Part shown: positions 6,122-8,226 of the stretch, in pieces
Layout: each line of letters starts with the position of its first letter
How positions within the stretch are numbered: position 1 is the stretch's first letter
Assembly (NCBI GenBank): GCA_041498815.1
Contig: JBGQJC010000007.1
Coordinates: 7,524 to 71,523, forward strand
DNA: 64,000 nt
Source of the DNA: Alphaproteobacteria bacterium
Lineage (GTDB): Bacteria; Pseudomonadota; Alphaproteobacteria; DATDPM01
Direction of reading: 5' to 3'
Notes under the pieces: model-generated
Database searches by the model: none
What the model saw: only the letters and a program-made list of their open reading frames with translations
Told to the model about the DNA's origin: nothing
Translations under genes and position numbers: made by a program

Positions 6122-6663
6122 ACCTTCGCTGCCGCGCAGCTTCGGTTGGCTTAGCCCTCCGAAGTTCCGGCGAGGGAAACAACACCGGACATTTCGCACC
6201 GAAATGCAGCGGTTTGCCGCGATTTGTGCGTCTCCTGCTTCGTCCTGCTTCCAGGCGTGATTAATCGCCGCCGGTTAAGTTCCCCCGAAAGCCGCGCGCC
6301 GCTTGACTTTCGGCCGCCATGCTCCTGCCCGCCCCCGGCTTTTCCCGGCGAATGTCAGCAAATGTCAACATCGCGGCGCCGCAGCCAAGCGAGACCGGCG
6401 AAACAACACGCCGGAATTCGCCCGCCGCAGGCGTTGCGAAGTTGTTAGTCGTTCACGATGTCAAAGACCGGTGTAGGATTATATTCTTATGCAGCAGGGA
6501 TGTCAAGCGAAGGCCTGATCCGGCGCTGCCTACATGAATTACAATTTCTGCCGCATCCACAAGACGCTCCGCGTTACCCCTGCGATGGCCGCTGGAGTGA
6601 CAGACCGGCTTTGGGGAATTGGTGATATTGTGAAAGTGCTTGAGGACCGGGAGGCTAAACATC

Positions 6664-7089
6664 GTGTCGGCGCATAAGACTGAGCGCGGCCATCAAACCC
6701 AATGGGCCGCACAATTCGCCGTCGCGAGCGAGTTATGCAAGCGCGGATATGAGGTCGCATTTACGTCAGGGCACAACACGCCGGTAGCCGATCTCATGGT
6801 TGTAAGTCCGAAAAACAAAAAAATGTTTCTCGTGGATGTGAAGGGTCTTTATCGGAAGAATCCTTGGCTTATCAAGCGAAAGACTCTCAGGAAGAATCTC
6901 TTCTACATCCTCGCGTATGTACCGGCTGACGAGCCCAATCAGTTCTTCGTGGTGCCTCAGCGGCGGGCACTTGCGTTCATTCAAAATGAACTGACGCGGC
7001 TAAAGAGGTCGAATGATTACCCCGTAACCGGGTTCGTCTGGAAATTGGCCTTGGAGTACAAAGACGCTTGGGACCTCTTACCAAAATAA
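6664..7089 (+). CDS. Small PD-(D/E)xK (Hjc/YraN-like) nuclease-fold protein in a low-GC islet
   Basis: A GGGAGG Shine-Dalgarno at 6648-6653 sits 10 nt before the GTG at 6664; the track ORF starts at the TTG at 6640. The protein carries motifs in the right order for the restriction-endonuclease-like fold: E(RG) ... GYEVAF ... ADLMVV ... FLVDVKG. AT-rich codon usage is atypical for this genome. Confidence 0.55.
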   Translation: MSAHKTERGHQTQWAAQFAVASELCKRGYEVAFTSGHNTPVADLMVVSPKNKKMFLVDVKGLYRKNPWLIKRKTLRKNLFYILAYVPADEPNQFFVVPQRRALAFIQNELTRLKRSNDYPVTGFVWKLALEYKDAWDLLPK

Positions 7090-7187
7090 TTCAAAATGCG
7101 TCACTGCCCCTGATCCAGTAATGTTTTAGATCGAGCGGAAATTGAGATGGCCGCAAGAAGACCGTCGCGCGTGATCGAGAATTAAAA

Positions 7188-8183
7188 ATGATCCACGCGA
7201 ATCAAATACGATGGCTCAACCGCCCTATTTCTGTGAACGAATTACCAAAATTTTGGATACCTGAGTACCGTGCGAATCGGTATCTGAAGCCTCTAACCGA
7301 TAGTCAGCTACAAACTCGGATCGAGGATATTCTCTCGAATTTAATGGCACTCGGCGACGACGGGAAATACAGGCCTCGATATCTGATCGGTGAGAACAGG
7401 TTATATCGTCCAATTCGGAATTTGGACTTTCTCCGAATGCTGGTGGACATTGACGAAGAATGTCGGCTAAGGGGAAATCCATCACTTCTGGCCGACTTAC
7501 CCTCTGTCAATCTACAGCTGGCCCAGCGCCTCGCCGACGAGACGTGGTGTCGACGGCCGGATTGGGTTGAAAAATCGCGGCTCTCACAGGAAGTGTATCA
7601 GCATCCTCGGATGCTGTTCCGATTCAGCGAGCGGAAACACAATCGAAGTTTTTTTGAAGCTGGAGAGATGCATTTGCAGCCCGCGTCTGCCTACGATGAT
7701 CCATCCCTAAACAACGCGCTAGCCGATGATGAGTGCGTCAAGAAATGGTATGGCGAGCATGGAATTATCAAAACCTTCTCCGTTCCGGATTACTACTGTA
7801 TCTGCTTTGCCGCCACGTATGACGTTCGGCTATTCCGGGATTTTCGAAAGAGCGATTTCAGTTGTGTGGCAATCGGGGATGTTCTCGAATTTACCGAACG
7901 TCTCCGAAGGGCTATCAAAAAACACAACGGGTTACACGCTGAAACTCGAATCCAGGCACTCATCACTTCGCCGGTAATTTATTATGACCCATTCTCTCTT
8001 GTCGATATGTCGACGCCATCCGAGGTGTATTTTTCCAAGCATTTTCGTTTTGCGTATCAAGAAGAGTTTCGCCTTGTTGTAATTCCAGCGCATTCCAGAA
8101 AACTGCAGCCGTTCTCTTTAAATATTGGCGCAATCACCGACATCGCGGAGTTCATGTTCGATCCGTTGAGCCCATCGGGCTGA
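7188..8183 (+). CDS. Hypothetical 331-aa protein (orphan, low-GC, about 47% GC); co-oriented with the upstream nuclease-like gene
   Basis: Long uninterrupted ORF in a compositionally anomalous segment. I recognise no catalytic motif. It is rich in Arg, Leu, Phe and Tyr and shows no transmembrane segments. Confidence 0.6.
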   Translation: MIHANQIRWLNRPISVNELPKFWIPEYRANRYLKPLTDSQLQTRIEDILSNLMALGDDGKYRPRYLIGENRLYRPIRNLDFLRMLVDIDEECRLRGNPSLLADLPSVNLQLAQRLADETWCRRPDWVEKSRLSQEVYQHPRMLFRFSERKHNRSFFEAGEMHLQPASAYDDPSLNNALADDECVKKWYGEHGIIKTFSVPDYYCICFAATYDVRLFRDFRKSDFSCVAIGDVLEFTERLRRAIKKHNGLHAETRIQALITSPVIYYDPFSLVDMSTPSEVYFSKHFRFAYQEEFRLVVIPAHSRKLQPFSLNIGAITDIAEFMFDPLSPSG

Positions 8184-8189
8184 CGCCGC

Positions 8190-8226
8190 GGCCAAAAAAA
8201 TTCGGCGGCACAAATCCGCGCCGCCG
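8190..8226 (-). terminator. Putative rho-independent terminator downstream of the phasin gene (minus strand)
   Basis: Stem CGGCGGC (8203-8209) pairs with GCCGCCG (8220-8226) across a 10-nt loop. On the minus strand this is followed by a TTTTTTT run (complement of the A-run at 8191-8199). Confidence 0.4.

Follow-up and report, generated by a model that had tools for sequence, protein, structure and literature searches.

Introduction

The Synechocystis tRNA-fMet group I intron encodes I-Ssp6803I, to our knowledge the only characterised homing endonuclease of the PD-(D/E)xK type. Rugutis (pUCCL633_059, PRJNA1086404) is a validated lactococcal single-gene system resembling abortive infection (Abi); its protein has 359 amino acids (aa), an N-terminal SEC-C motif and a fold that is absent from the PDB, and it is triggered by the phage large terminase (PMC11381338). 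Aristaios, a DUF2971 protein of 316 aa, is likewise a validated single-gene abortive-infection system (PMC11381338, PMC12522546). Here, we compare these systems with a small low-GC islet in a 64,000-nucleotide stretch of DNA from an uncultured alphaproteobacterium (contig JBGQJC010000007.1), which was analysed as a whole and is referred to as the window; the identical locus is present on a JGI metagenome contig. The islet carries two complete genes, which are called gene 1 and gene 2.

The first-pass annotation of the window had proposed that the pair forms an undescribed defence or toxin module. In our analysis, the islet is probably a small mosaic of three separately derived pieces and not a two-gene system. 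The first piece would be a dead tail of 47 codons from a transposase of the insertion sequence (IS) family IS1, carried along with gene 1. Gene 1 would be the second piece, a self-contained module of ∼0.5 kb that is solitary, repeatedly transferred and either selfish or weakly beneficial, and its product may be a metal-dependent, probably long-site-specific DNA cutter. The third piece, gene 2, is found at other loci as a low-GC gene on its own, surrounded by defence, toxin–antitoxin and mobile-element genes; it would act alone as an enzyme-type effector, most plausibly in an abortive-infection-like single-gene defence or as a toxin. The two genes may be co-transcribed here through accidental juxtaposition. 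The locus in itself is a small, commonplace piece of foreign cargo, and a new two-gene system should not be claimed for it; what is of lasting interest is the two protein families, that of gene 2 in particular. The parts of the islet are as follows.

6526–8190, unstranded: foreign low-GC islet of 1.66 kb (placed by GC content, on the left by alignment with L124, the equivalent locus of a relative, and on the right by the phasin terminator and the gene 2 stop codon)
6534–6677, plus strand: C-terminal remnant of an IS1-family transposase, 47 codons and a stop codon (placed by its translation and the C-termini of homologues)
6664–7089, plus strand: gene 1, a predicted stand-alone PD-(D/E)xK endonuclease of 141 aa with an I-Ssp6803I-like fold
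7090–7187, plus strand: spacer of 98 bp between gene 1 and gene 2 (scanned for promoters and terminators; similarity to L126, the locus of the closest gene 1 relative, ends at 7092)
7188–8183, plus strand: gene 2, 331 aa, member of a large unnamed family

Probable separate derivation of the three pieces

Relatives of the two genes were collected from metagenomes, GTDB genomes and look-ups, which gave 94 loci for gene 2 (80 distinct) and 37 loci for gene 1 (35 distinct). Outside the window the two genes were never found together. Among the 80 distinct loci of gene 2, the sequence reaches 600 bp or more upstream in 53 and 2 kb or more to either side in 27, and none has a homologue of gene 1; among the 35 distinct loci of gene 1, of which 33 extend 1.2 kb or more downstream, none has a homologue of gene 2. 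Clustering of all neighbouring open reading frames (ORFs) gave no recurrent partner for either gene; the neighbours that were repeated came only from closely related genomes or duplicate contigs. The closest relative of gene 1, in L126/L127, is 86% identical at the amino-acid level. The DNA of the window and L126 is ∼88% identical only over ∼6605–7092, ending 3 bp past the gene 1 stop codon, and beyond the equivalent of 7092 L126 carries an unrelated DUF6998-like gene of 170 aa. The closest gene 2 relative fetched (L128, 61% amino-acid identity) resembles the window only within the coding sequence. The absence of co-occurrence, the sharp boundary of gene 1 and the confinement of the L128 similarity to the coding sequence together indicate that the two genes are separately acquired modules which are adjacent by chance. 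An upstream ORF pair in L128 (147 and 334 aa) was rejected as an equivalent of the gene 1–gene 2 pair: the sizes are similar but the sequences are unrelated.

Frame +3 of 6534–6677 reads MNYNFCRIHKTLRVTPAMAAGVTDRLWGIGDIVKVLEDREAKHRVGA followed by a stop codon; there are stop codons just upstream and no upstream ORF, and the remnant overlaps the start of gene 1. Plasmid proteins, among them three with the annotation 'IS1 family transposase', match the remnant at their C-termini with 51–72% identity, so that the earlier statement that the segment carries no transposase has to be amended. An intact copy has 294 aa and scores above the Pfam DDE_Tnp_IS1 cut-off, and the match lies at about residues 238–280. 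The last 47 of ∼294 codons survive (∼16%) and neither inverted repeats nor the DDE domain is left, from which it follows that the IS1 element is dead. Since the closest homologue of gene 1, in L126/L127, also has such an IS1-like tail in front of it, the tail has travelled with gene 1.

Gene 1, a predicted PD-(D/E)xK nuclease

Gene 1 was assigned a GTG start codon 8 nt behind a GGAGG motif, which gives 141 aa; the mechanically called ORF begins at the TTG at 6640 and has 149 aa. Both lengths are represented among public gene calls. The predicted structure contains the restriction-endonuclease-like core fold α-β-β-β-α-β, and residues E23, D43 and D58-x-K60, which do not vary across 26 homologues, are all retained by gene 1 of the window, in agreement with the small PD-(D/E)xK-fold protein of the first-pass annotation. 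By its predicted fold and motif, gene 1 is placed in the PD-(D/E)xK superfamily, and cleavage of DNA is predicted. The closest structural relative by a wide margin was I-Ssp6803I (PDB entry 2OST), with 18% identity in the structural alignment; a profile built from the 26 homologues retrieved neither 2OST nor any other entry when it was searched against PDB sequences. Searches with gene 1 gave nothing beyond marginal MTES_1575 matches in Pfam, no family match in NCBIfam and no match in PADLOC 2.0. Judged by the ratio of nonsynonymous to synonymous substitution rates (dN/dS), which is 0.094 against a relative at dS 0.74, gene 1 is under purifying selection.

The relatives of gene 1 are 60–85% identical and are distributed patchily across phyla, in Acidobacteriota and Alphaproteobacteria. 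Their GC content is 0.45–0.57 with host flanks of 0.50–0.70, and it is below that of the flanks in nearly all 37 loci. The gene is in places solitary and directly abuts flanks of host GC content, and the flanks are unrelated across genomes. No relative of gene 1 or of gene 2 was found in phage genomes. From the fold, the intact catalytic residues, the purifying selection and this distribution we infer a nuclease activity, a target and possibly homing.

In five Terracidiphilus genomes (L094, L095, L096, L107 and L111) gene 1 is syntenic between two conserved genes, so that one site is filled in all five; its GC content there is 0.45–0.49 and that of the flanks 0.57–0.69, despite apparent vertical inheritance. 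In three further genomes, homologues lie 94–420 bp from tRNA genes (L090, 6001–6686; L115, 6031–6596; L116, 5505–6423), one of them again beside tRNA-Leu(UAA) in a metagenome-assembled genome of Terriglobia; loci within ∼550 bp of a tRNA number four of 37 in total. The closest homologue (L126, 1065–4990) adjoins a Prim-Pol/DUF5906 primase gene and an AlpA gene, as in a P4-like integrative element. A leader upstream of gene 1 was considered as a conserved element and rejected, since it is common only to the window and L126/L127. Likewise, gene 1 as cargo of a repeated element was discarded: the two loci concerned (L097 and L108) are 99.4% identical over 7.5 kb and are thus assembly variants.

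Gene 2 and its genomic neighbourhoods

The first-pass annotation had described the 331 aa protein as an orphan. Searched with a profile of its relatives, however, the family comprises 2,870 representative clusters, and E is at or below 1e-30 for 570; its relatives are mostly 26–31% identical. The predicted architecture consists of an N-terminal helical domain and a C-terminal α/β domain. Residues R44, R95, G159, D180, E182, C206, Y265, D267, K284, F286, Y290, Q291, E293 and R295 are invariant, and the polar ones around D180/E182, Y265/D267, K284 and the strand Q291-x-E293-x-R295 form a putative active site. The fold was predicted with confidence and had no match among PDB folds, and the family profile found nothing among PDB sequences. 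In PADLOC 2.0, gene 2 matched only PDC-S31 (E = 0.049), and 68 family members gave no consistent match. The family has no Pfam, NCBIfam or PADLOC model. That neither protein matches a named defence system had been stated before and is upheld here by PADLOC, Pfam and NCBIfam; no homology of gene 2 to a housekeeping enzyme was seen.

The GC content of gene 2 is below that of its flanks in 29 of 42 loci (p = 3e-7). Its relatives stand beside genes for a GajA-like protein, GajB and NERD-UvrD; a TIR-TPR protein; HEPN_RiboL-PSP, Mrr_cat, a REase-ARP-like protein and DUF5677; a pPIWI-associated nuclease; HigB/HTH proteins; an IS1-like transposase; and, on plasmids, integrase, recombinase and SMEK proteins. 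When 150 gene 2 neighbours from 66 loci were searched against PADLOC, the families matched were GajB, RT-Protease_XI, NERD+UvrD, PDC-S54, bSEFIR, DRT, Aga_TIR and mad2, in some cases at E < 1e-100. The proposal of an undescribed defence system in this window therefore stands in part: gene 2 alone, by the association of its neighbourhoods, is a plausible single-gene defence candidate, and the pair is not.

Several observations concern the architecture and setting of gene 2 homologues. One sub-branch (L063, 216–1250; P0188; P0176) has an N-terminal SEC-C zinc motif, e.g. CPCGSGRKYKKCC, immediately ahead of the conserved domain. An extra N-terminal region of 100–190 aa is present in about 20 of the 150 top-ranking family representatives; no Pfam domain was found in the N-terminal extensions of the nine that were scanned (P0156, P0158, P0186, P0195, P0205, P0212, P0257, P0261 and P0282). 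In L128 (2633–4005), the gene 2 homologue shares 4 bp with an overlapping 130 aa ORF whose only match is to the beginning of the Phage_integrase domain, and the insertion of the homologue appears to have been into, or beside, a truncated gene for a tyrosine recombinase.

Composition, boundaries and insertion site

The features that flank the islet are as follows.

6035–6121, plus strand: tRNA-Leu(UAA) (ARAGORN; Rfam tRNA, 60.9 bits), the sole ARAGORN tRNA of the window
6122–6525, unstranded: host intergenic backbone outside the islet (aligns with L124; scanned for promoters and against Rfam)
8203–8226, minus strand: intrinsic terminator of the convergent phasin gene, marking the right-hand host boundary (terminator scan)
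8343–8849, minus strand: host phasin gene

The sliding GC content is 0.45–0.55 across ∼6450–8250 and 0.62–0.72 on both sides. The islet (6526–8190) has a GC content of 0.498, whereas all other 1.66 kb windows have a mean of 0.649, a standard deviation of 0.020 and a minimum of 0.595; the islet value (z = −7.6) is the lowest of the 64 kb, which bears out the GC drop noted in the first pass. The foreign codon usage of the two co-oriented genes is equally evident: the GC content at third codon positions (GC3) is 0.62 in gene 1 and 0.52 in gene 2, compared with 0.78–0.86 in the SfsA, CinA, BluB, phasin and CorA genes. Elsewhere in the window, a second short GC dip (0.48–0.54) lies at 9300–9750 between a small ORF and the CorA gene, and the next-lowest GC content outside the islet neighbourhood is ∼0.59 over 1.5 kb at ∼42000–43750.

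The right edge of the islet is given by the gene 2 stop codon at 8183 and the phasin terminator at 8226→8203, which has a stem of ten pairs (eight of them GC) followed by a T run. On the left, the alignment with L124 places the beginning of foreign DNA at ∼6526. Between the tRNA and this point, 404 bp (6122 to ∼6525) are host backbone, since they can be aligned with L124, whose BluB is only 70% identical; the insertion is thus ∼400 bp beyond the tRNA 3′ end and not immediately downstream of the tRNA as had been claimed. Within the conserved block at ∼6338–6525 there are four ATGTCA/TGTCAA repeats, near 6353, 6364, 6468 and 6500, and no Rfam family was found in it. A sequence at 6506→6478 on the minus strand matches the σ70 consensus at 12 of 12 positions (TTGACA-17-TATAAT) and is directed towards the tRNA and bluB.

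An ORF search of the islet gave no integrase, and a repeat search gave no att-like duplication of the tRNA 3′ end bounding it, both as previously reported; the sole tRNA-derived repeat is a 13 nt, 92% match inside gene 1, which is at chance level. The search for direct repeats around the islet gave only chance-level repeats of 11–21 nt, and no inverted repeats bounding the islet were found. A search of 5800–8700 against Rfam at E ≤ 1 for group I or group II introns and other RNA families found the tRNA alone. An integrase-mediated genomic island at a tRNA site was rejected as a description of the locus, as there is no integrase and no att repeat and the insertion lies ∼400 bp from the tRNA.

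The BluB of the window shares only 75% identity with its nearest orthologue. tRNA-Leu(UAA) adjoins the BluB gene in all of the relatives examined (L122–L125), and L124 and L125 retain the backbone CorA–phasin…tRNA-Leu(UAA)–BluB–CinA–SfsA–M24–RadC–M50–RF1. Both gene 1 and gene 2 are missing at this site from L122–L125, and so the pair is not conserved in syntenic position. The interval between the tRNA and the phasin gene is nevertheless not empty in L124 and L125: it holds a methyltransferase gene and small ORFs at a GC content of 0.56–0.61 against ∼0.70 (in L124, 5080–6810, with ORFs of 77 and 83 aa). In L122 and L123, which have no phasin gene here, genes for DUF8292, a sulfatase and DUF5131 come after the tRNA (L122, 1–5990). 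Each relative carries different cargo of lower GC content 3′ of tRNA-Leu(UAA), which identifies a variable hotspot across the lineage. The islet is foreign DNA in this recombination-prone variable interval between the tRNA/intergenic block and the phasin gene.

Alternative explanations

A single undescribed two-gene defence or toxin system, with one protein as the sensor or regulator and the other as the effector, would account for two co-oriented genes lying 98 bp apart with no terminator between them, for the foreign character of both and for the lack of a match of either to a named system. It is nonetheless largely refuted by the co-occurrence test, with no joint occurrence at 80 gene 2 and 35 gene 1 loci and no recurrent partner, and it is highly improbable in view also of the module boundary 3 bp behind the gene 1 stop codon, the difference in GC3 and the very different sizes and distributions of the two families (identities of 60–85% for gene 1 and mostly 26–31% for gene 2). 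The scan of the spacer (7090–7187) gave no terminator or promoter consensus; with the genes 98 bp apart, co-transcription is possible but would be accidental. Decay to junk, in which the islet would hold the functionless remnants of an old insertion, is suggested by the truncated transposase and by the lack of remaining mobility genes; it is hardly credible given that neither ORF is disrupted, that no family-invariant residue has been lost from either and that gene 1 has the low dN/dS reported above. The mosaic of independent pieces remains the preferred reading, and the following points weigh against it. Functional coupling specific to this lineage is possible, because the genes are co-oriented and 98 bp apart with no terminator. 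No insertion mechanism can be reconstructed for a locus that has no att site, inverted repeats or integrase. For gene 1, no pair of a filled and an empty site was found that would speak for homing, and the syntenic Terracidiphilus copies diverge about as fast as their flanks, which looks like stable inheritance and not active spread. For gene 2, the case for a defence role is one of neighbourhood; the PADLOC families numbered 317 for gene 2 neighbours against 137 for 137 gene 1 neighbours, a count by families and not proteins and with no genomic background, which makes it suggestive only.

Alternatives also exist for each gene. Gene 1 could be a solitary restriction-type or Hjc-type nuclease that serves its host in defence or junction resolution and is not selfish. 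We regard this as a genuine if lesser possibility: no methyltransferase or other recurrent partner adjoins the gene, a homing endonuclease stands far ahead of all other fold matches, and the GC content is consistently foreign and the distribution patchy across phyla. Membership of gene 2 in the Rugutis family is unlikely. tblastn searches with two SEC-C-bearing members of the gene 2 family found no relative on Lactococcus plasmids, a query trimmed of the SEC-C motif gave no Lactococcus match, SEC-C motifs are promiscuous and the window protein has none. A bridge to Rugutis through plasmid-borne 'SEC-C' proteins was rejected, as the Bacillus and Alkaliphilus matches (836 and 158 aa) have other architectures. 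Gene 2 might otherwise be a divergent toxin or defence enzyme resembling ADP-ribosyltransferases (ARTs) of the DUF2971/Lsan_0116 clade, Aristaios-like or DarT-like, that would ADP-ribosylate DNA or protein upon phage infection. The three-motif signature of ARTs is R/H, S/Y and [QE]xE on strands 1, 2 and 5, and R/K145, S167 and Q291-x-E293 of gene 2 lie on predicted strands in a compatible order, although the agreement is one of order only and S167 is not invariant. Neither PF11185 nor another ART model was found in 31 and 68 family members (E ≤ 1 and E ≤ 0.1, respectively), the PADLOC scan of the family matched neither DarT nor AbiG, and the predicted structure of gene 2 showed no similarity to the ART fold, so that this alternative is also doubtful.

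Comparison with known systems

The gene 2 family recurs beside Gabija, TIR, HEPN/Mrr, pAgo-nuclease and toxin–antitoxin genes while no Pfam, NCBIfam or PADLOC model covers it; if gene 2 is a defence gene, current annotation pipelines miss the family everywhere. We propose, tentatively and with considerable doubt, that it may be a large unnamed family of single-gene abortive-infection-type defence enzymes with a fold unrepresented in the PDB, perhaps the wider family that includes Rugutis or else a very divergent type of ART, and separately that gene 1 may represent widespread free-standing I-Ssp6803I-like homing endonucleases outside cyanobacteria and introns. The latter, if true, would extend the I-Ssp6803I enzyme type to free-standing genes in soil bacteria.

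The islet resembles other small tRNA-adjacent islets and defence cargo in its low GC content, its proximity to a tRNA, its variable cargo and its mobile-element remnant. It differs from them in having no integrase or att site, in lying ∼400 bp off the tRNA and in retaining an IS1-family fragment as its only trace of mobility. With IS1-family insertion sequences the remnant shares the C-terminus of the transposase, and it differs in lacking the DDE domain and inverted repeats. I-Ssp6803I is intron-encoded and cyanobacterial, whereas gene 1 stands by itself, flanked by an IS remnant and gene 2, and its relatives are found in Acidobacteriota and Alphaproteobacteria and not in cyanobacteria; the likeness of the two is one of fold without detectable sequence homology (hidden Markov model searches were empty). 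To Rugutis, gene 2 is similar by description: a single gene for ∼330–360 aa whose product has a fold predicted with confidence and unmatched in the PDB. The SEC-C motif of Rugutis is shared by a sub-branch of the gene 2 family and is missing from the window protein. Aristaios/DUF2971 and the Lsan_0116 ART-like proteins resemble gene 2 in size, in being encoded by a single gene and, broadly, in the order of candidate motifs, namely a basic residue in strand 1, S/Y after strand 2 and Q/E-x-E at the start of a strand.

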